Positions 11,942-31,144 of a stretch of DNA of 32,000 bases are shown here, piece by piece. Source of the DNA: Ruminococcus albus 7 = DSM 20455 (GTDB lineage Bacteria > Bacillota > Clostridia > Oscillospirales > Ruminococcaceae); NCBI RefSeq assembly GCF_000179635.2, contig NC_014833.1, positions 2,490,001 through 2,522,000 of the forward strand, written 5' to 3'. Within the stretch, counting starts at the first letter, position 1. Each line of letters begins with the position of its first letter. A model generated the notes under the pieces. That model did no database searches. It was not told where the DNA came from and worked only from the letters and a program-made list of their open reading frames with translations. The translations under genes and the position numbers were made by a program.

Positions 11942-13306
11942 TTATTCCTCGCTGTTATCATCATTCTCCTCAGAGATCTCAGCATCAGTATCTTCATTCT
12001 GATCCCCGTTGATCTCCTGTTCAGGCTCTTCGCCGTGTGCAGCCTTGCGGCGGGCATCGCGTGCGGCAAACGCCTTCTGAAGATCTGCACGCATCTCCTC
12101 ATCATTCTCAACTTCTGCCTCAACTTCTGCCAGCTGGTCCTCCCTCTCGAAGAAAGCTTCGGCAGCAGCAAGCTTTTTGCGGCGCTTGCTGGTGGGCTTC
12201 ATAATAATAAGGTATTCCACAGCGATAATTACCATAGTCAGTGCAACAGCGATAACTATCAGAAGATTGCGAACTGTCTTATCGGGAGCCCCGGAATTAT
12301 TACTGTTATCTGCTGCAGCTACAGTCCTGTCCTGCCCGTCGGTAGTGATAGTATCATCGATGATGATGATATCATAGGTCTCAAGTGTATCATCATTGAA
12401 TACTACATCAAAGGATGTTTCACCGGCAGCCAGGAATTTGAAAATACCGTTCTCAAAGCTTACAATACTGTCATCGGCAACAACGATGTTTCTGTAGTTC
12501 TCTATGTTCATTTCGGAAGGTTCAGCCTGAACTTTGCTCTTCTGAACTCTTACCAGCTTATTATATTTTGGTGTATCCTGATCACCCTGTTCGCCCGATA
12601 CATCAGGATTTGTTACTATACCGTTATCGACAGAGTAAGATATGGGCACACCTGTTTTATTATCAAGCGTGGTAACTGTCAGGAAAAGTGTCGAAGACAC
12701 CATATTCTTGTCAAGCACATCAAAATTCAGGGTAACGTAATTGCCCTTGTATTTGCTGCCTGCATCGTTGGTATAATTGAATACGTACTTTCCGTTGAAG
12801 CTGTTCTCGGCAGCAACTCCGCCTGCTTCGGGATTTATCTGTGTGCTTGTCAGCTGTAAGGTCGCTGTATCAAAGGCAACGGACATAAGTGCGCCGGATA
12901 CCGAAGCATCAGCTTCTATCCTCAGTTCTACAGAAACCTTGCCGTCCTTCATCTCACCGGGCTTCAGATACACCCTTGACGGAGCCGATGTGGGCTTATC
13001 CGTAACAGGTGCTGTAGGCTTGTTCTCCATGCTTGTGACTTCATTACCCGCTGTCTGGGCAGGATCATACTCAGGCGTTGGGGCTGCAGTTGTGGTAACT
13101 TCACCATAACCGTTATCATAGCCGTTATCATAACCGTAATCGTAGCTGTAATCATTGTTATAATCATAATTATAGTTATAGTCATTATAATCGTAATTGT
13201 TGTAATCATAATTATAATCATAGCCGTATTCCGCATATACAGAAGGTGCTGATGCCGCTACTGTCAGAGCTGCGGCAATGACCGCAGCAAACCTTTTTAA
13301 ATTCAT
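11942..13306 (-). CDS. type-I membrane-anchored surface protein with cohesin-like domain and Tyr/Asn/Asp-rich tract
   Basis: 454-aa ORF. In order it has a signal peptide MNLKRFAAVIAAALTVAASAPSVYA, a 43-aa Y/N/D/G tract, and a Thr/Pro linker. A ~125-aa beta-rich domain follows (VYLKPGEMKDGKVSVELRIEA...GALMSVAFDTATLQLTS...YVTLNFDVL...) whose hydrophobic pattern resembles cohesin modules. Next come a second Ig-like segment, the TM helix LLIVIAVALTMVIIAVEYLIIM, and a highly charged cytoplasmic tail. Confidence 0.7.
   Translation of the reverse strand: MNLKRFAAVIAAALTVAASAPSVYAEYGYDYNYDYNNYDYNDYNYNYDYNNDYSYDYGYDNGYDNGYGEVTTTAAPTPEYDPAQTAGNEVTSMENKPTAPVTDKPTSAPSRVYLKPGEMKDGKVSVELRIEADASVSGALMSVAFDTATLQLTSTQINPEAGGVAAENSFNGKYVFNYTNDAGSKYKGNYVTLNFDVLDKNMVSSTLFLTVTTLDNKTGVPISYSVDNGIVTNPDVSGEQGDQDTPKYNKLVRVQKSKVQAEPSEMNIENYRNIVVADDSIVSFENGIFKFLAAGETSFDVVFNDDTLETYDIIIIDDTITTDGQDRTVAAADNSNNSGAPDKTVRNLLIVIAVALTMVIIAVEYLIIMKPTSKRRKKLAAAEAFFEREDQLAEVEAEVENDEEMRADLQKAFAARDARRKAAHGEEPEQEINGDQNEDTDAEISEENDDNSEE
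13103..13231 (-). repeat. low-complexity TAY/AAY/GAY codon tract (Y/N/D repeats)
   Basis: Encodes EYGYDYNYDYNNYDYNDYNYNYDYNNDYSYDYGYDNGYDNGYG. The DNA is built from reiterated tat/tac, aat/aac and gat/gac triplets. Confidence 0.8.
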
Positions 13307-23688: not shown

Positions 23689-25620
23689 TCATATTCTGTG
23701 GCGTCTTCGGCTGACCTTGTAGCGGTACATATTCTCATCCGCGATAGTCAGCAGTTTTTCAACATCGGTATCATCCTCGTCACTTAGTGCACAGCCAATG
23801 CTGGCGGTAACTGTGTAAGGCTTATCATCCCCTGCTGTCAGCTTGCTGAGATTGTCACAGAAATCATTGACATACTTATCATTGTCAAATTTATCCTTCT
23901 CTCTCAGACCAAGGATGTAGAATTCATCGCCGCCTGCACGACAGCAGATATCTCCGTCGTTTGCAATCGACCTTACGGCATCTGCAACTCGGATTATACC
24001 GTGGTCACCCTCTGAATGACCAAATGTATCATTTATGTATTTCAGACCGTCCATATCTACAACGGCTGCAAACAAACGATCATGCGGTTTTGCCCTCTTA
24101 AACAGCTTTTCTATCTTCTGGAACATACCGCGCCTGTTAAGCAGTCCGGTCATCTTGTCATTTATGGAAAGCTCAAGGAATCGGTTCCTGGTACGTACCA
24201 TTTCAAGGGCGTTGTTGACAAATCTCAGCCAGTTGCGGTATACCATATTGTATTTTGGGGCATCGCTCAACTTACGCTGCAATACACCATATCCAAGTGT
24301 ATTATTCGCAAAATGCACAGCAGAAAAATAGTATATGGAAGGTGGCTCATTTTTTATAAACTGCTGCGGCAGCATCTCCGAGGTATCGAAAGTTATCCTC
24401 TTTTTTAGCTCCTGCAGATCGTCAAGTCTATCCTTGGATCTGAACATAACAAGATCCATCTTTTCGGGATAACCCTCTTTTATATCCCGTGAATCATCGA
24501 GCCAGTCCTGTCTCAGACAAAGAAAGAAATTTCTCATCGGAGATACAATATAAGCCGAATTATAGATATTCTGTATGCATTCCTCAGGATCACGTGAAGC
24601 TGTAAGCTGTTCGGGTATATGGTTCTCCATAAGCAGTCCTATGTCGATATTATCCTCATATACATTCTTAGTATAGTTCCTCATCAAAAAATAGATAGAT
24701 GTTCTTACTGCATCAAGAGTATTCCTTGCATCAAAAGTACATCCACAGCTCATACCTGTATGCAGTGCCGAAGCTACATCGACCTCGTATGGACTGATCT
24801 CTGCTCCGGGTTCGATACGGCGGCGTAAGATATCCACTGCATCTGCTGCACATTTGGCATAGTTTGACTCTATGGAGGTGAGTGTTATATCTGAAAGAAA
24901 AGCATCAATTGTAGCCTCAAATCCGAGGACTATCATATCCTCGGGAATATGTCCGCCAAGATGTGTGTATTCTTCTATAAAACCAAGAGCCATGTGGTCG
25001 CTGGAGGCTATGAGAGCATCCGGTTTTGATACCTTTCCGGATACTATATCCTGTGCAAGCTGTACACCGCTGTTGTACCAGAAATCACCATAGATTATAT
25101 GATCCTCAGACACCTCAAGACCATGCTTGTGTATCTCGTCCAGCATTGAGGCAAGACGGTCTTCAGCCTCATAATTGTCCTTGAAACCTGTTAGCAGACA
25201 AATATCCTTGCAGCCGTGAACTTCGATAGCATGACGGCAAAGTTCACGCATAAGCTGGTCATTGGAATTCTCGGACACTATAAGATCTTTAAAAGGCTTT
25301 CCTATGCTGATACAGGGTACCGATGTTTTTTTGATTAAATCATTATAGATCTTATTGATAATATCCGTATTATTATTATAAGTCATACCTATGACATCAA
25401 CAATGATGCCGTCGAACTTACTGTAATTTGGAAGATTATAAATGTTATTCTCACCGTCGAGATATTCTTTCAGATAGAAATCAAACGCCACCATTGATGA
25501 GACGACCACAAGATCATAGCCATATTTTTCACACTGAGCCGCTGCACCGATACTTACTCTTTTCGGATGAGCAGTTTCGAGCATACAAGTCAGCAGGCAG
25601 ATAGTTTTACGTTCATTCAC
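23689..25620 (-). CDS. diguanylate cyclase with N-terminal LacI/RbsB-type ligand-binding domain (paralogue of 20467-22818)
   Basis: The ORF-track GTG at 25629 overlaps the GGAGG SD, so I start at the in-frame GTG 25620 (7-8 nt after the SD). PBP pattern: ICLLT...YDLVVVSS...ALIASSDHMALGFIEEYTHLGGHIPEDMIVLGFE. GGDEF motifs: MTGLLNRRGMF, VDMDGLKYINDTFGHSEGD, CRAGGDEFYILG. No TM. Confidence 0.9.
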   Translation of the reverse strand: MNERKTICLLTCMLETAHPKRVSIGAAAQCEKYGYDLVVVSSMVAFDFYLKEYLDGENNIYNLPNYSKFDGIIVDVIGMTYNNNTDIINKIYNDLIKKTSVPCISIGKPFKDLIVSENSNDQLMRELCRHAIEVHGCKDICLLTGFKDNYEAEDRLASMLDEIHKHGLEVSEDHIIYGDFWYNSGVQLAQDIVSGKVSKPDALIASSDHMALGFIEEYTHLGGHIPEDMIVLGFEATIDAFLSDITLTSIESNYAKCAADAVDILRRRIEPGAEISPYEVDVASALHTGMSCGCTFDARNTLDAVRTSIYFLMRNYTKNVYEDNIDIGLLMENHIPEQLTASRDPEECIQNIYNSAYIVSPMRNFFLCLRQDWLDDSRDIKEGYPEKMDLVMFRSKDRLDDLQELKKRITFDTSEMLPQQFIKNEPPSIYYFSAVHFANNTLGYGVLQRKLSDAPKYNMVYRNWLRFVNNALEMVRTRNRFLELSINDKMTGLLNRRGMFQKIEKLFKRAKPHDRLFAAVVDMDGLKYINDTFGHSEGDHGIIRVADAVRSIANDGDICCRAGGDEFYILGLREKDKFDNDKYVNDFCDNLSKLTAGDDKPYTVTASIGCALSDEDDTDVEKLLTIADENMYRYKVSRRRHRI

Positions 25621-25658
25621 AGTGCACACCTCCAGACACTGACATATTTTATTAATTG

Positions 25659-25802: not shown

Positions 25803-27818
25803 TCATTTACGATCTTTTATAATATTTTTGCTGCTGAAATAAGTCACGAGGAAGTATCCGCCGTATATCGCTGCAAGTATAAGTGAGGTCACAGTTATGG
25901 AACGTCCCATATCCTCAGTGCCGAATACCTCCAGAGTCTTTACTGCAAAGTTCATGCCGAATACCGAGTGCAGCACTGCAAGTATCAGGGGTATAAGGAA
26001 GAATATGCCTGTCTGTCTGAACAGTGATCTGTTGAGATCCTTTTCGTCTGCGCCTATCTTTCTGAGCATCTCATATCTGCCTACACTGTCAGCACTCTCA
26101 GAAAGCTCTTTCAGCGCAAGTATCGCTCCGCTTGCTATCAGGAATACAAGTCCTACATAAAGTCCTACGAATGTAGCTATAGCACCTAAGCCTGCCGAAT
26201 TTCTGTTAACTTCCTGGCGCGATGTGAACATGCAGGCGCCGAAATTTTGGTTTTTCATCAGTTCGTTGATTTTGTTATTTACGGTCTTTTCAGCTGTGTC
26301 TTTGTCATCGGAAAGATAGTTGCCTATAAAGTATTCCATTTCCAGCGGACTCGATCCCGTTATAACATCGTCGGGTACTATTACAATACCCGTGTTTGTC
26401 CTTGCAACGTCTAAAGTGATGAATCCATCAACTGTATCATCGTACTGCGATCTCAGTGTTCTTCCGAATACACTTATCTCATCACCCTTGTCAAGGGTGC
26501 GGTCACGCAGTTCTTTAGTAGACTTGAAATTGCAGGTAACTATAAAGCTGTCTTTTTCAAGTTCAAGTTCATCTCTGCCGTAAAGTCTCATGAGAGCGTT
26601 GTAATCACTGACTTTTACTATTTTCTCGGGTTGATCGAACATTATCATACTATTATTTTTCTTGATCTCCTCAGCATCTTCACCCAGCATTTTTTCAAAT
26701 GTCAGACTTTCATCCATATAGGTGTAAAAGTGAGCGTATTCACTGAAATCTTCAGTAATATCAATACCCTCCTCCTCAACGATCTTCATAACGTCATGTT
26801 CCGGATAATGACCGTTTAAATAGAACTGAAGGTCGTAATCCGCAGGGCAGAGTTCCTTGATATTTTTGTTCAGCGAATTGCGTATGCAAAAGGCTGCCGC
26901 AAGCATACAGATAGTTACGAAAAGCATAAGGCATATCATCGTCATGGACATTACCATAGTGTTAACCTTGCTGCTGATCTGACGGAAGGTGAAACTGTTA
27001 AGGCTGCGGAAGTACATACCCTTCATGGACATCACTGTACGCAGCAGCATACCCGATACCGACCAGAATATAAAGAAAGTTGAAACAGCACCTGTTATGA
27101 TGCTTCCGATGATTTTTGCTCTGCTGAGATCCTGATAGCCTGCAGTTACTGTGTAATAAGCTGCACCCAGAGCTATGGCGGATATGATGAATATAACCAC
27201 GCATACAATGGGATTTTTCAGCTTTATCTGCTCGGAGCGTTTGCCCGACTGCATAAGATCGATGAGCTTCATCTTTGTGATGACTATGCTGTTGAATACC
27301 ATAACAACAAAGTACATCACACCAAAGTAGAGGATCGTCTTTGTTATCGCCTCGGCCGATACCGTGAACTTGTATGCGGTCATATCAGCTTCAAAAAGGT
27401 TTGCAACCAAAGCGCTCATCAGCTGAGAAAGTCCTATGCCCACCAGCAGACCCGCTGCCAGTGAACCCAGACCGATGATACCTGTCTCTACAAGCAGCAG
27501 CCTTGATATGCTGCCCTTGCCCATGCCGAGGGTCATATACAGAGCGAACTCCTTATGCCTGCGCTTCATTAAGAAACGGCTGGCATACACTATCAGCAGA
27601 CCCAGCACACCTGCCACGAAAATGCTTATGCCCGAGAGAACGGTGGAAAGCATATCAATTATCTCATAGCTGCTTTCGTCCAGCTTCATCATGGCTGCCT
27701 GTCCGCCGATCGCATTGAATACATAGAATACCGATACGCCTATCATCAGCGTGAAAAAATATATCGCATAGTCCCGCAGACTTCTGCGGATGTTGCTTAC
27801 AGAAAGCTTAAAGAGCAT
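25803..27818 (-). CDS. BceB-type ABC transporter permease (FtsX family, 10 TM)
   Basis: The ORF-track GTG 27830 lies inside the GGAGGTG SD, so I start at ATG 27818 ([17 protein letters not shown], a typical BceB N terminus). By eye there are 10 hydrophobic helices with a ~225-aa extracytoplasmic loop between TM7 and TM8. It overlaps the ATPase gene by 11 nt. Confidence 0.9.
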   Translation of the reverse strand: MLFKLSVSNIRRSLRDYAIYFFTLMIGVSVFYVFNAIGGQAAMMKLDESSYEIIDMLSTVLSGISIFVAGVLGLLIVYASRFLMKRRHKEFALYMTLGMGKGSISRLLLVETGIIGLGSLAAGLLVGIGLSQLMSALVANLFEADMTAYKFTVSAEAITKTILYFGVMYFVVMVFNSIVITKMKLIDLMQSGKRSEQIKLKNPIVCVVIFIISAIALGAAYYTVTAGYQDLSRAKIIGSIITGAVSTFFIFWSVSGMLLRTVMSMKGMYFRSLNSFTFRQISSKVNTMVMSMTMICLMLFVTICMLAAAFCIRNSLNKNIKELCPADYDLQFYLNGHYPEHDVMKIVEEEGIDITEDFSEYAHFYTYMDESLTFEKMLGEDAEEIKKNNSMIMFDQPEKIVKVSDYNALMRLYGRDELELEKDSFIVTCNFKSTKELRDRTLDKGDEISVFGRTLRSQYDDTVDGFITLDVARTNTGIVIVPDDVITGSSPLEMEYFIGNYLSDDKDTAEKTVNNKINELMKNQNFGACMFTSRQEVNRNSAGLGAIATFVGLYVGLVFLIASGAILALKELSESADSVGRYEMLRKIGADEKDLNRSLFRQTGIFFLIPLILAVLHSVFGMNFAVKTLEVFGTEDMGRSITVTSLILAAIYGGYFLVTYFSSKNIIKDRK

Positions 27819-28575
27819 CGCTAATGTCACCTCCCAGCAGTGTCACTACATCTATTATCTTATCAAAGAACTGCTTGCGGGTATCCTGACCGCGGTTTAT
27901 CTCATTGAATATCTTTCCGTCCTTTATGAATATCACACGGCTCGCATAACTTGCAGTGAAGCTGTCGTGTGTGACCATCATAATGGTAGCGCCGCATTCT
28001 GTATTCAGGTAGCGGAAGCGTTCAAGCAGCATCCTTGCACTCTTTGAATCCAGTGCACCTGTAGGTTCGTCAGCAAGCACCAGCTTAGGTGATGTGACTA
28101 TTGCACGTGCCGAAGCCACACGCTGTTTCTGTCCGCCCGACATCTGGTATGGGTACTTTTTGAGAACGTCTGTTATGCCCAGCTGTTCAGCTACGGCATT
28201 TACGGCTTTCTCGATCTCACCTGCAGGCTTTTTCTGTATTGACAGTGCAAGTGCGATATTTTCGTAAGCTGTCAGTGTATCCAGCAGGTTGAAGTCCTGA
28301 AAGATGAAACCCAGTTTCTCGCGCCTGAACTTATTGAGCGCCTTGCCCTTTATCTCGGTGATATCGCTGTCATCAAGATAGATATGACCTGCGGTAACAC
28401 GGTCGATGGTGGAAATGCAGTTTAACAGCGTTGTCTTTCCGCTGCCCGATGCACCCATTATTGCAACGAACTCGCCTTTATCCACCCCGAAGGATATATC
28501 ATCTATCGCCTTAGTAAGGCTGGATCGGCTGCCGTAGTACTTCTCGATGTTTCTGATCTCCAGTAATTTTTCCAT
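27808..28575 (-). CDS. BceA-type ABC transporter ATP-binding protein
   Basis: 255-aa ORF with Walker [14 protein letters not shown]-loop, signature [10 protein letters not shown], Walker [13 protein letters not shown] and an H-loop VTHD. AGGAG SD upstream. Confidence 0.94.
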
Positions 28576-28646
28576 TCTCTTTTTCTCCTTTGCTATTGCT
28601 TTTATATAACTGATCTTTACAGTTGTCTTCTCTCTTTTGTTCTATA

Positions 28647-28728
28647 TTTGCGGGGGGCTCTCCCCTTCTTTATTGATCTTTATATCCGTTTTGCTGTCGC
28701 TCTTTCTTTATGCCTTATTATAATGTCT
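28647..28728 (-). repeat. degenerate third copy of the RR-box promoter unit, upstream of the ABC ATPase gene
   Basis: The minus strand reads AGACATTATAATAA..GAGCGACAGC..TATAAA..GGGGAGAGCCCC. It retains the left half-site, the GCGACAG block, a -10-like hexamer and the GGGG/CCCC hairpin of the two full units. The right half-site is degenerate (AATAA rather than TGTAA) and the box-to-hexamer spacing is 30 nt rather than 43. Confidence 0.5.
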
Positions 28729-28912
28729 GCTCCTGCTTTAAAAGATCTGTGTACTTTTTCTTTGCCAAAACATACATTACTGTGCATACTGCAAGGGTAG
28801 TCATGCCCTGTGATTCGATCGCACCCGTCTGTATAGTATTTATTACCATTCCCATAAGGACTGCTATAACTGTTACTGCACAAATGATAACTGATATTCT
28901 TGTCTTTTTCAT
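28718..28912 (-). CDS. small 2-TM membrane protein (paralogue B)
   Basis: 64 aa, MKKTRISVIICAVTVIAVLMGMVINTIQTGAIESQGMTTLAVCTVMYVLAKKKYTDLLKQEQTL, with a GGAAAGG SD 9 nt upstream. It has two hydrophobic helices with a short loop and aligns with the neighbouring small ORF (TR-I-VI...VIN...KY). Confidence 0.6.
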   Translation of the reverse strand: MKKTRISVIICAVTVIAVLMGMVINTIQTGAIESQGMTTLAVCTVMYVLAKKKYTDLLKQEQTL

Positions 28913-28941
28913 AACTATCTGCCTTTCCGCTTCAGCTTTTT

Positions 28942-29038
28942 TCGTCAGGGGTTCTTTCCCCTTGGTGTATCTTTATTATATCACGTATCTTGCTGTCTGT
29001 CGTTTTTTCTATATTACTTTACATTACAATTTTGTAAT
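28942..29038 (-). promoter_or_regulatory. RR-box promoter unit B (BceR-type inverted repeat + -10 + 5' hairpin)
   Basis: Minus strand TTACAAAATTGTAA (29037-29024), 43 nt, TATAAT (28980-28975), then the hairpin AGGGGAAAGAACCCCT (28962-28947). It is ~80% identical by eye to unit A over ~96 nt. The box overlaps the last 8 codons of the upstream small ORF. Confidence 0.62.
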
Positions 29039-29229
29039 GTTGCTTCTTCTTCCTCTATCTCCTCTTTGTATTTCATGGAAGAACATCCGTAGATGAAGGT
29101 ACCTAAGACGATCATTGTCGCCATTGCAGGATCAAAGACCTCTGTATGCGAGTAGTTTATCACTGCGATCACGAAAAATATTATAGTTGCCAGTGCGCTT
29201 ATTACCATTATTTTTCTTGTGTTCTCCAT
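29014..29229 (-). CDS. small 2-TM membrane protein (paralogue A)
   Basis: The ORF track starts at ATG 29238, which abuts the SD; I prefer ATG 29229 (GAAAGGA SD 8 nt upstream). 71 aa: MENTRKIMVISALATIIFFVIAVINYSHTEVFDPAMATMIVLGTFIYGCSSMKYKEEIEEEEATLQNCNVK, with two hydrophobic helices and an acidic tail. Confidence 0.6.
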   Translation of the reverse strand: MENTRKIMVISALATIIFFVIAVINYSHTEVFDPAMATMIVLGTFIYGCSSMKYKEEIEEEEATLQNCNVK

Positions 29230-29256
29230 AGTTATCATCCTTTCTTCCGTTCACAT

Positions 29257-29352
29257 CTTTCAGGGGTCTTTCCCCTTGCTGTGTCTATATTATAACAGAA
29301 GAAAAGCTGTCTGTCGCAATTTCTACATTACTTAACATTACAGTTTTGTAAT
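29257..29352 (-). promoter_or_regulatory. RR-box promoter unit A (BceR-type inverted repeat + -10 + 5' hairpin)
   Basis: Minus strand TTACAAAACTGTAA (29351-29338) fits the TNACA-N4-TGTAA inverted repeat I recall as the consensus for BceR-like regulators. It is followed by 43 nt, TATAAT (29294-29289), then the hairpin AGGGGAAAGACCCCT (29276-29262). Confidence 0.65.
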
Positions 29353-29425
29353 ATTCGCGGTAACATGATATCACCCCTATCCCTTCTGCAGAAAAATGCA
29401 GTCGGGGTACGGGGTGTGATAGTTA

Positions 29426-30418
29426 TTACATATTATGCAGTCTGTCCTTACCGAATACTATGGTGATCTCTGTATACTCCCCCTGCACCGAATCAGCCTT
29501 AACGGTATGTCCAAGCTTCGTGCAGAGCATTTTTACTATATATAGTCCCATTCCGGTAGACTTTGTGTGCGTCCTGCCGTTTTCGCCGGTAAAGGATTTT
29601 TCAAAAATATTCGGCAGATCGCTTTCGGGTATGCCTATGCCGTTATCCCACAGATGCAGTACTGTCCTGTCATCGAGATCCTCAGCGTATACCCTTATCT
29701 CATCGGCTTCATACTTTATGCTGTTGTTCATAAGCTGACCCAGTATGAAAGCCAGCCACTTTGCATCCGTCATTACCTCAACATCAAGCCCCCGAGCAGA
29801 AAGGGATATATTGCGCTCCTGTATCTCGGTGCGGTTCTTCATGGCTGTTTCACCGAAGATACGTTTCAGGGATGCATTCTTTATTATATAGTCCTTTTCT
29901 GCGTTGCGGCTCCTGGCATAGAACAGCACGTTCTCGATATAGTCATCTATGCGTTTGAGCTGTTCGGCATACCTTGTACTGCCGTCGTTGTGACACATAA
30001 GCTGCAGTGATGCCACAGGCAGCTTTATCTCATGCACCCATAGTTCTATATACTCACGGAACTCAGCATTCTCACGGCGGTATTCCGCGATGCGTTCGCA
30101 CATGGATTTATCCGTTCGCCTTAACACATCATGCAAAAGCCTGCCCTCGAAGAAATCGGGATCTTCCAGCACTTCCGCCAGCAGATATTTTTTATCCAGT
30201 TCATCAAGGCAGTTCACCATTTTATCGTAGTACAGCTTTTTTCTTACAAAAGTCAATACCTCGGAAATTATGCCCCCAATAAGAAATATTGCATCAAGCA
30301 TGATCATCTGCTCCGCTTCCATATGGAAAGCGTTCATGAAAATAAAAGCGATAACAAGTGCGGCAGCAAATATCCAATAGGCTGCTGCCCTGTCCTTAAT
30401 ATAGTCTGCAAAACTCAT
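29426..30418 (-). CDS. BceS-type intramembrane-sensing histidine kinase
   Basis: 330-aa ORF. Two N-terminal TM helices are separated by only ~6 residues (HMEAEQ), and there is no extracytoplasmic sensor domain. H-box is HEIKLPVASL, N-box is LGQLMNNSIKY, and the G-boxes are DNGIGI and GMGLYIV. It has a 4-nt ATGA overlap with the RR gene. Confidence 0.9.
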   Translation of the reverse strand: MSFADYIKDRAAAYWIFAAALVIAFIFMNAFHMEAEQMIMLDAIFLIGGIISEVLTFVRKKLYYDKMVNCLDELDKKYLLAEVLEDPDFFEGRLLHDVLRRTDKSMCERIAEYRRENAEFREYIELWVHEIKLPVASLQLMCHNDGSTRYAEQLKRIDDYIENVLFYARSRNAEKDYIIKNASLKRIFGETAMKNRTEIQERNISLSARGLDVEVMTDAKWLAFILGQLMNNSIKYEADEIRVYAEDLDDRTVLHLWDNGIGIPESDLPNIFEKSFTGENGRTHTKSTGMGLYIVKMLCTKLGHTVKADSVQGEYTEITIVFGKDRLHNM

Positions 30419-31077
30419 TTCAGCACGTACCCCTGTTTCTTGCGTGTTTCGATAGCATCCTCAAAGCCAAGGTCAGCAAGCTTGCCGCGCAGACGGCTGA
30501 TATTTACCGACAGTGCGTTATCGTTAACGAACTCATCATTATCCCACAGGGCAGTCATAAGGTCATCGCGGGTGACTATCTCTCCCTGTCTGTCAAACAG
30601 CAGCTGGAATATTATCATCTCATTTTTGGTGAGCACCTGTTCCCTGCCGTTCCTGGAGATGCTGCCCTTGACAGTACTCACCTCAGCATCGTGGAACATC
30701 TGTAAGGTGCTTGTCCTGTTAAATCGTTTGAGCACCGCGGATATCCTCAGCAGAAGAATAGTGGGATTATAGGGCTTGGTCACGTAGTCATCAGCCCCGA
30801 AGCTCATGGAGAGCACCTCATCTATCTCGGTGCTGCGGCTGGTGAGCATTATCACAGGGGTATCGGTGAACTTGCGGTACTCCTGCAGCAGGGCTTCACC
30901 GCCCACGAAAGGCAGGTTTATATCCAGCAGGATAAGGTCTGCATCGGATGCTTTCATCTGTTCAAGGGTATTGCTGAAATCTGTGACAGCGGAAGCTTCA
31001 TAGCCTGAATTGCGCAGCAGAGTAGCAACTTCATCGCGGAGGGCATTATCGTCCTCGATAACGAGTATTCTTTTCAT
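30415..31077 (-). CDS. OmpR/PhoB-family response regulator (BceR-like)
   Basis: 220-aa ORF. The receiver domain shows ILVIEDD, LILLDINLP (phospho-Asp) and VTKPY. The C-terminal winged helix shows LTKNEMIIFQLL, ALSVNISRLRGKL and IETRKKQGYVL. Confidence 0.93.
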   Translation of the reverse strand: MKRILVIEDDNALRDEVATLLRNSGYEASAVTDFSNTLEQMKASDADLILLDINLPFVGGEALLQEYRKFTDTPVIMLTSRSTEIDEVLSMSFGADDYVTKPYNPTILLLRISAVLKRFNRTSTLQMFHDAEVSTVKGSISRNGREQVLTKNEMIIFQLLFDRQGEIVTRDDLMTALWDNDEFVNDNALSVNISRLRGKLADLGFEDAIETRKKQGYVLK

Positions 31078-31115: not shown

Positions 31116-31144
31116 ATTATAAACTATTTATGCAGATACGTCAA
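31116..31144 (-). promoter_or_regulatory. sigma-A-type promoter of the two-component system genes
   Basis: Minus strand TTGACG (31144-31139), a 17-nt spacer, then TATAAT (31121-31116). Confidence 0.6.

Follow-up and report, generated by a model that had tools for sequence, protein, structure and literature searches.

Tandem small membrane protein genes with duplicated, putatively regulator-dependent promoters precede the transporter genes of a Bce-type module in Ruminococcus albus 7

A 32,000-nucleotide (nt) stretch of the Ruminococcus albus 7 (DSM 20455) chromosome, which we will call the window, contains a Bce-type antimicrobial-peptide sensing and resistance module whose genes all lie on the minus strand. 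Between the genes for its two-component system (TCS) and its ATP-binding cassette (ABC) transporter are two small paralogous open reading frames (ORFs), each behind its own copy of a promoter with a predicted response regulator (RR) site. We favor the reading, to which we assign a probability of about 0.55, that this region forms the regulated 5' part of the transporter operon and that the small proteins are accessory membrane partners of the transporter/kinase complex. The Bce module, the BceR box, and the small accessory protein are known kinds of element. The protein family itself, its promoter-proximal position, the copy-number-variable arrays with serial promoter duplication, and the overlap of coding and regulatory sequence are new. 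In the literature searched, neither the accessions given below nor Bce modules in Ruminococcus are mentioned. In the Firmicutes, Bce-type modules count among the main systems of resistance to peptide antibiotics, and a 2024 review describes the assembly and role of Bce accessory proteins as “largely unexplored” (PMC11009047). The genes of the module are as follows.

31116..31144, minus strand: promoter of the RR-kinase operon, TTGACG-17 nt-TATAAT, near-consensus sigma-A type, read directly from the sequence
30415..31077, minus strand: response regulator, OmpR family, BceR-like, 220 amino acids (aa); Pfam Response_reg 1e-22, Trans_reg_C 3.7e-19
29426..30418, minus strand: histidine kinase, BceS-like, intramembrane-sensing, 330 aa; BceS 8g3a, E = 1.4e-23, residues 15–322
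29014..29229, minus strand: small ORF A (type 1), 71 aa; ADU22733.1 / WP_013498890.1, “hypothetical protein”
28718..28912, minus strand: small ORF B (type 3), 64 aa; ADU22732.1 / WP_013498889.1, “hypothetical protein”
27808..28575, minus strand: ABC ATPase, BceA-like, 255 aa, without an RR box of its own; Pfam ABC_tran 1.1e-34
25803..27830, minus strand: permease, BceB-like, 675 aa, its start overlapping the ATPase stop; two FtsX domains (Pfam)

Sequence and architecture agree in identifying the four large proteins as a Bce-type module, as an earlier reading of this DNA from its letters alone (the sequence-only reading) had proposed. The best solved relative of the kinase in the PDB is BceS, with a match spanning the full length of the protein. 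The kinase has a HATPase_c domain (Pfam) and two N-terminal hydrophobic helices (residues 13–31 and 39–57) joined by a 7-residue loop. The best solved relatives of the permease are BceB (7tcg, 9e-31) and PsdB (4.6e-24), and a 238-residue hydrophilic stretch (317–554) is followed by three hydrophobic segments at the C-terminal side, as in BceB. The FtsX/BceB permease, the two-helix intramembrane kinase, and the OmpR-family regulator with a predicted TNACA-N4-TGTAA site are thus all present. The BceRSAB and PsdRSAB modules of Bacillus subtilis have the same four core proteins, the same order of regulator and sensor (RS) genes followed by ATPase and permease (AB) genes, and a box ahead of the transporter operon.

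The small ORFs belong to repeated promoter cassettes, which we will call units A and B, and the remnant of a third (unit C) precedes the ATPase gene.

29328..29351, minus strand: unit A predicted regulator site, TTACA-AAAC-TGTAA plus GTAA (pattern scan)
29289..29317, minus strand: unit A core promoter, GCGACA-17 nt-TG-extended TATAAT (promoter scan 10/12)
29263..29275, minus strand: unit A hairpin, GGGG-AAAGA-CCCC, at about +6 of the predicted mRNA
29014..29037, minus strand: unit B predicted regulator site, TTACA-AAAT-TGTAA plus GTAA, overlapping the 3' end of ORF A (pattern scan)
28975..29003, minus strand: unit B core promoter, ACGACA-17 nt-TG-extended TATAAT (promoter scan 10/12)
28948..28961, minus strand: unit B hairpin, GGGG-AAAGAA-CCCC, at about +6 of the predicted mRNA
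28647..28728, minus strand: unit C, degenerate cassette remnant; box lost, GCGACA-10 nt-TATAAA in place of the 17-nt spacing, hairpin kept at 28665..28652

Units A and B agree in 77 of 98 aligned columns (78.6% identity). For random 97-nt windows of the same sequence the mean identity is 49%, and none exceeds 55%. The sequence-only reading had judged the identity to be about 80% by eye, and every feature that it named was recovered in place on the minus strand. A repeat finder gives a period of 314 nt, and identity is 86% both over the box/−35 block and over the −10/hairpin block. Each unit has the order TTACA-N4-TGTAA, a GTAA third half-site, −35, TG-TATAAT, hairpin, Shine-Dalgarno (SD) sequence, and small ORF. 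TNACA-N4-TGTAA is said to be the BceR-type box consensus of Dintner et al. from 2011. In both units the third half-site lies 10 nt, or one helical turn, past the right half-site, and TATAAT lies exactly 43 nt from the box, as had been noticed before. This 43-nt spacing is found in 35/35 distinct cassettes examined in the window and its relatives. The block GCGACAGACAGC, which had been described simply as conserved, is the −35 region, since the promoter scan places GCGACA/ACGACA there.

TNACA-N4-TGTAA occurs in the window at units A and B and once more, at 12460–12473 on the minus strand (TGACAGTATTGTAA), against 0.32 occurrences expected in all. This additional match lies apparently inside coding sequence, has neither a third half-site nor promoter elements, and is probably due to chance. 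With zero mismatches, the composite site (box plus GTAA) is present at units A and B only. A window scan at up to 3 mismatches found no composite site ahead of the ATPase gene and none ahead of the RR gene or near the RR-kinase promoter, which agrees with the earlier statement that no canonical box lies elsewhere upstream of the transporter.

The third, degenerate unit had also been seen correctly: its box is gone, its −35/−10 spacing is shortened, and its hairpin survives despite the decayed promoter. The promoter scan finds no site in unit C or between it and the ATPase start. Unit C is homologous to a degenerate unit of the relative L001 (6800–6925), where a further small ORF, an extra type-1 gene, follows. 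The start matching this extra ORF is mutated in the window (GACAACTGTAAAG in the window vs GACAACTATGGAG), and the ORF is lost.

ORF A ends within unit B, where the DNA of the box and third half-site also specifies the final codons of the ORF and its stop (..ATLQNCNVK, stop). Because of this overlap with the predicted regulator site of the next cassette, the C-terminal tail of type-1 proteins would be constrained by DNA binding. The same coding/regulatory overlap is seen for type-1 proteins (..TLQNCN..) in L001, L004, L007, L133, and P0010, and another lineage ends in ..NITKM.

The hairpin of the 5' untranslated region (UTR) begins 13 nt past the −10 in both units, where the sequence-only reading had described a GGGG-loop-CCCC element. 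Of 33 distinct UTRs taken from 21 loci, 32 have it at this fixed place, and the mean folding free energy is −6.8 kcal/mol vs −1.5 kcal/mol for shuffled UTRs. Compensatory changes are found in the stem. The outer pair is G-C (27) or C-G (5), pairs closer to the loop are G-C, C-G, or A-T, and whole-stem variants include CGGGA/TCCCG, GGGAG/CTCCC, GAGGAA/TTCCTC, and GGGC/GCCC. No Rfam match was obtained at E <= 1 in 28300–29700. Stem-loops at the 5' ends of Firmicutes mRNAs can act as stabilisers. By analogy, the hairpin is probably a 5'-proximal mRNA-stabilising stem-loop, which would also shield downstream segments after processing of a polycistronic RNA. At nine loci (L027, L072, L132, L076, L094, L116, L123, L124, and L081) the predicted mRNA begins with (A/T)AGATCAT, which can pair with ATGATCT(T/A), a segment located 3' of the SD and ahead of the start codon. 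This pairing, which units A and B of the window do not have, could close the whole UTR of ~50 nt into a stem around the hairpin.

The products of ORFs A and B are 26% identical (pairwise E = 4e-6) and align without gaps in the family alignment, so that the earlier description of the two ORFs (71 and 64 aa) as paralogues with two hydrophobic helices each is borne out. ORF A has an SD sequence, AAAGGA, 9–10 nt upstream of its start. Homologues of ORF A, 66–97% identical, and homologues of ORF B are present in other Ruminococcus genomes and metagenomes. The ratio of nonsynonymous to synonymous substitution rates (dN/dS) is 0.05–0.28 over 17 orthologous comparisons covering four paralogue types, with 0.10–0.17 for ORF A and 0.17–0.19 for ORF B. 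Substitutions concentrate at codon position 3, for example 9/5/27 at positions 1/2/3 between the window and L004. By these sequence measures the small ORFs are real genes under purifying selection. It is as proteins that they are conserved, and not as nucleotide repeats alone, a distinction on which the sequence-only reading had made its proposal depend.

The family alignment comprises 31 homologues, some only ~15–25% identical, and is essentially free of gaps in the core. Its conserved positions are an I-S pair (helix 1), a T...D motif in the loop, L-A..T (helix 2), and, right after helix 2, an almost invariant tyrosine (Tyr54) followed by a K/E-rich tail. The AlphaFold2 model of ORF A is a helical hairpin (residues 2–29 and 34–70) with a mean predicted local distance difference test score (pLDDT) of 85. 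In the family alignment the N-terminus averages 3.5 Lys/Arg, the loop is net acidic, and the tail is mixed Lys/Glu, a charge distribution that fits a cytoplasmic location of both termini. Cysteine is unusually abundant in helix 2, at 2.2 per 16 residues, and occurs there in motifs that include YCCAS and ICCCS; the overall Cys content is 4.2%. The richness of this helix in small residues and Cys suits helix packing, as judged from sequence.

A HMMER profile search of 1.84 billion representative proteins gave 24 matches at E <= 1e-3, all of 61–85 aa bar one spurious 661-aa protein. The matches for which context was recovered come from Ruminococcus genomes or from gut and rumen metagenomes. A metagenome scan with ORF A alone as the query gave 600 pattern matches and zero relatives, and a second scan with the type-1 alignment as the query gave two loci only. 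A bacteriocin precursor, toxin, or holin was considered and rejected. The proteins are integral membrane proteins with two transmembrane (2-TM) helices that follow the positive-inside rule and have no leader, and their genes have no biosynthetic neighbours and a fixed linkage to a resistance transporter. On present sequence comparisons the family is narrow, belongs to Ruminococcus, and is found solely in the slot ahead of a Bce transporter.

Genomic context was recovered for the window and for L001–L007, L027, L040, L045, L057, L072, and L129–L135, where short or cut contigs show it in part. Every family member with recoverable flanks is in a Bce-type context and, where the contig is long enough, lies between an RR box and a Bce ATPase gene. 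The answer to whether the homologues adjoin BceAB/BceRS genes, a check put forward by the sequence-only reading, is therefore yes wherever flanking sequence was recovered. The gene order of the recovered loci is RS, small genes, AB. Four paralogue types can be defined, with 16–39% identity between types, and they are arranged in the following arrays.

Types 1, 3: window, L135
Types 1, 4: L007/L045
Types 1, 2, 4: L057 (R. albus KH2T6)
Types 1, 3, 4': L134
Types 1, 2, 3, 4: L004–L006
Types 1, 2, 3, 1', 4: L001, L002

Type 1 is always first in the array and is among the most constrained types, and nearly all cassettes come with a box, a promoter, and a hairpin of their own. The relatives of R. 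albus have 2–5 cassettes of the four types, and other Ruminococcus species have a single small gene. L129 and L130, from one metagenomic lineage outside the R. albus clade, carry two paralogues with a full cassette each. L133 has two small genes ahead of the ATPase gene, and L131 and L132 have one. Among recovered loci, tandem arrays with one promoter per gene are thus confined, on sequence, to the R. albus clade and this one metagenomic lineage.

The promoter repeats are ~79–95% identical over ~100 nt among cassettes and lend themselves to unequal recombination, a process that would account for the differences in array composition. The arrays would have originated by tandem duplication of a “promoter plus small gene” cassette, and copy number and composition would shift between strains through recombination at these repeats. 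An extra insert is seen between the last small gene and the ATPase gene in L001 (7440–7570) and L007 (6530–6600), with the inverted repeat GTTATCCTGCAAA...TTTGCAGACGATAAC. In L001 there is a G/C hairpin (CTTTCCCCCGCC/GGCGGGGAAAG) as well, which lacks a U-tract. Neither L004–L006 nor the window has the insert. In L128 (312–782), a second full box/promoter/hairpin cassette follows the family member and drives a multi-helix membrane ORF of another kind, of 115–120 aa; the contig ends before any ATPase gene.

The small genes probably belong to the transporter operon and form its promoter-proximal part. No hairpin with a U-run terminator was found on the coding strand between the kinase stop and the ATPase start. 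The gap between the last small gene and the ATPase start is 48 nt in L004–L006 and smaller still in L131, L132, and L134, where the two genes abut. Co-transcription of the small genes with the transporter is suggested because the window has no terminator and several relatives leave no room for a promoter of the transporter's own. Plus-strand “terminators” reported by the scan were discarded; they are the UTR hairpins, next to the A/T-rich −10, in reverse complement, at places where no gene of the plus strand ends. A further hairpin lies just 3' of the kinase gene.

29372..29416, minus strand: long imperfect hairpin just 3' of the kinase stop, without a U-tract (RNAfold −27.5 kcal/mol, 79-nt segment)

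A stronger counterpart of this hairpin, CCCATATCCCGAC...GTCGGGATATGGG, is found at the equivalent place in L001, L004, and L007. It may act as a weak or partial terminator between the RR-kinase and transporter operons. Since it has no U-tract, basal read-through from the TCS promoter into the transporter genes is possible and could supply basal transporter for Bce signalling.

These observations modify three of the earlier claims. The small genes do lie between the TCS and the transporter genes, but they are better regarded as promoter-proximal genes than as an insertion, a single small 2-TM gene in this slot being common across Ruminococcus and the array being an expansion in the R. albus clade. 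RR boxes are indeed found ahead of the small ORFs only, but it does not follow that these are the strongest targets of the regulator, because read-through would give the transporter genes the combined output of every promoter in the array. As for transporter expression, which had been ascribed either to read-through or to a weak third unit, the lack of a terminator speaks for the former, and the promoter scan gives no ground for a promoter in unit C.

Based on these features, the following sequence of events can be proposed. The RR and the kinase would be made from their own constitutive-looking promoter. The kinase would be activated through the transporter, as in other Bce modules, and the phosphorylated RR would bind the inverted repeat and third half-site of units A and B, switching on two near-identical promoters. 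Each mRNA would open with a short G/C hairpin and encode a two-helix membrane protein of 64–71 aa. As there is no terminator and no further functional promoter, transcription would continue into the ATPase and permease genes, whose induction would then depend on the array promoters. The small proteins would insert beside the BceAB-like transporter and/or the BceS-like kinase, in a VraH-like manner, and tune resistance or signalling for particular peptides.

A survey with the pattern ATTACNNAANTGTAATGNNNNGTAA over one genome per species gave at least 120 loci. A Walker-A ATPase ORF starts no more than 250 nt past the box in 86 of the matches listed (median 87 nt), and the composite motif is for this reason taken to be a Bce transporter promoter element. 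Among the matches listed, 71 of these canonical loci are from Firmicutes other than Ruminococcus, with the ATPase start ~87 nt past the box, and 13 are Ruminococcus loci with canonical spacing. Most non-Firmicutes matches listed have no such ATPase and look like chance. The ATPase lies 348–1193 nt past the box in 12 loci among the matches listed, all from Ruminococcus, and a small 2-TM gene in first position of the transporter operon therefore appears to be a Ruminococcus trait. Canonical modules, represented by the 86 listed loci, place the ATPase gene ~87 nt past the box, whereas here one to five small genes intervene, the whole promoter is duplicated for each small gene, and the transporter has no functional box of its own. 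The 12 non-canonical loci are the following.

L045, L057: arrays of the window family
L027, L072 (Ruminococcus sp. YE71): a single member of the window family
R. flavefaciens 007c (L076), L094, L116, L123, L124, L081, L013, L050: different-looking 2-TM ORFs of 69–75 aa

The different-looking ORFs have sequences such as MKKLTSKIIR...YEI..., and L116 has two of them. Comparison of these R. flavefaciens-type ORFs with the window family by hhalign gave no support for homology beyond a probability of 15%; by sequence they are either very diverged homologues or separately recruited. The ATPases behind the same box in other genomes are 81–93% identical to that of the window, and in a tree of these sequences, all 81–93% identical, Ruminococcus modules with small genes and canonical ones are interleaved. 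The same box is also seen ~87 nt before near-identical ATPases in gut and rumen metagenome-assembled genomes labelled Bacilli, Clostridia, Lachnospiraceae, “Tenericutes”, and others (L008–L127). They make up a strongly conserved and widespread Bce subfamily, which has possibly moved horizontally.

Any account of the small proteins has to explain their exclusive Bce linkage, their placement under the same regulator, and a 2-TM architecture with a conserved short outer loop, a cytoplasmic tyrosine, and a charged tail. It also has to explain four diverged paralogues, each under purifying selection, and the variation in content among strains. The closest model for a membrane partner is VraH of Staphylococcus aureus, a small transmembrane protein that forms a complex with VraDE and has a cytoplasmic YYKRREEKGK tail (PMC5786555). 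Its contact with the ATPase VraD requires the presence of VraE, and VraH is needed for gallidermin and daptomycin resistance but not for resistance to nisin or bacitracin (PMC5786555; PMC7438565). A duplicate of VraH, vraH2, is co-induced (PMC6291627). As VraH is described, the likeness extends to a small membrane protein in a BceAB-type operon under a BceR-like regulator (the BraRS/NsaRS regulon), although in R. albus the induction is predicted from the boxes, and to two transmembrane helices with a tyrosine and then a charged cytoplasmic tail after the last helix. On the other hand, the VraH gene lies downstream of the transporter genes without its own promoter, and it forms no array and has no four diverged paralogue types. 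By this analogy the resemblance is a lead and not a claim of membership.

The sequence-only reading was right that its precedent, VraH, is encoded downstream, but an upstream precedent also exists, although its product is secreted. This is ysaD, the first gene of the Lactococcus lactis ysaDCB operon (TCS-G), which lies behind a BceR-type promoter; YsaD has been proposed to modulate transporter-kinase signalling (PMC7438565). YsaD and B. subtilis YxeA (YxdLM-YxeA) share with the small proteins the feature of an extra small gene co-transcribed with a BceAB-like transporter. They differ in being secreted peptides with a signal sequence that belong to TIGR01655, while the proteins described here are 2-TM hairpins with a basic N-terminus, and 13/13 members have no TIGR01655 match at E <= 10. 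Also, ysaD is a single-copy gene, whereas the small genes here are arrayed.

Several points weigh against the accessory-partner reading. The small proteins have no Pfam or NCBIfam match, and a Foldseek search against the PDB gave nothing at E <= 0.001 and returned generic helical hairpins only. That each small gene has a promoter to itself would also suit proteins working independently of the transporter. Some transporter expression could come from the TCS promoter and not from units A and B, and Rho-dependent termination or RNA processing between cassettes is possible.

In a speculative combination of the array and partner ideas, which we would not yet expect to hold, the paralogues are specificity adaptors shuffled by recombination. 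Each of the four types in the R. albus clade would dock on the single BceAB/BceS complex and retune it for another class of antimicrobial peptide, and unequal crossing-over at the ~100-nt promoter repeats would add, delete, and reorder cassettes. If this is true, strains of one species would differ in the peptides that they sense or resist while the transporter itself is unchanged.

It is also conceivable, although we consider it unlikely, that the small proteins are feedback modulators of the kinase. They would be induced by the RR and, once bound to the two-helix membrane domain of the BceS-like kinase, would damp or reset its signalling, much like MgrB with PhoQ. The kinase, having two helices with a loop of 7 residues between them, is purely an intramembrane sensor, and the small genes lie directly 3' of its gene and under its regulator. 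L. lactis YsaD is reported to change signal relay and not resistance (PMC7438565), and small membrane proteins acting on intramembrane kinases are known, e.g. ScrA, which is reported to act on SaeS (PMC12239555). Like MgrB, the products are very small membrane proteins whose genes are predicted to be activated by the associated TCS. However, MgrB is a single-pass protein with a periplasmic tail and has no sequence relationship to the family, in which a single member matches MgrB at E = 0.63, which is noise. A simple feedback loop has no obvious need of four diversified paralogues and copy-number variation, and in every locus the genes appear to be joined transcriptionally to the transporter and not to the kinase.

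Equally doubtful is a separate resistance layer of stand-alone, immunity-like proteins that guard the membrane or a lipid target against certain peptides and share only the regulator with the transporter. Immunity-gene repertoires of bacteriocins show a diversified, strain-variable pattern, and small cationic 2-TM immunity proteins exist for circular and for other bacteriocins. The own promoter of each gene, the divergence of the paralogues (16–39% identity), and the strain-dependent content would be in keeping with this. However, the flanks contain no bacteriocin structural or biosynthetic genes and differ while the RS-small-AB block stays the same, and zero family members were found away from a Bce ATPase.

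A much less probable explanation is that the serial RR-dependent promoters raise or sharpen transporter induction and the small ORFs are passengers of modest importance. With read-through, the ATPase and permease genes would sum the initiations of all array promoters, and the promoter blocks of the cassettes are 79–86% identical in nucleotides vs 26% amino acid identity for the ORFs. However, the ORFs are not passengers, because every paralogue type is under purifying selection (dN/dS 0.05–0.28), and a single-copy small gene is kept in other Ruminococcus species. That the promoter DNA alone is functional and the reading frames are accidental is hardly credible: the ORFs are short, match no Pfam or NCBIfam family, and in L004 one was missed by the gene caller, but codon-position-3 bias, dN/dS well below 1 in 17 pairwise comparisons, the alignment of 31 homologues without gaps, in which helix, loop, and tyrosine positions are conserved, an SD sequence at the right distance, and a confident helical-hairpin model all speak against it.

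Within Ruminococcus there is thus a natural series of modules with zero, one, and up to five small partners of four types beside near-identical transporters. This series is a comparative system for how a small membrane protein alters the specificity or signalling of a Bce transporter. The regulatory design is unusual, with a whole, putatively RR-dependent promoter duplicated in series within one operon and one predicted regulator site doubling as a coding end. Strain-level variation of the arrays may bear on rumen and gut survival under bacteriocins and feed antibiotics such as bacitracin.

The gene 3' of the permease gene (23689–25629, minus strand) specifies a protein of 646 aa in which a LacI/periplasmic-binding-like domain is joined to a GGDEF diguanylate cyclase. 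In relatives this gene is not conserved beside the module, which has cellulase genes at its sides there. The module is thus flanked by this gene and a truncated ORF in the window and by GH9/cellulase genes in relatives, with the RS-small-AB block intact.

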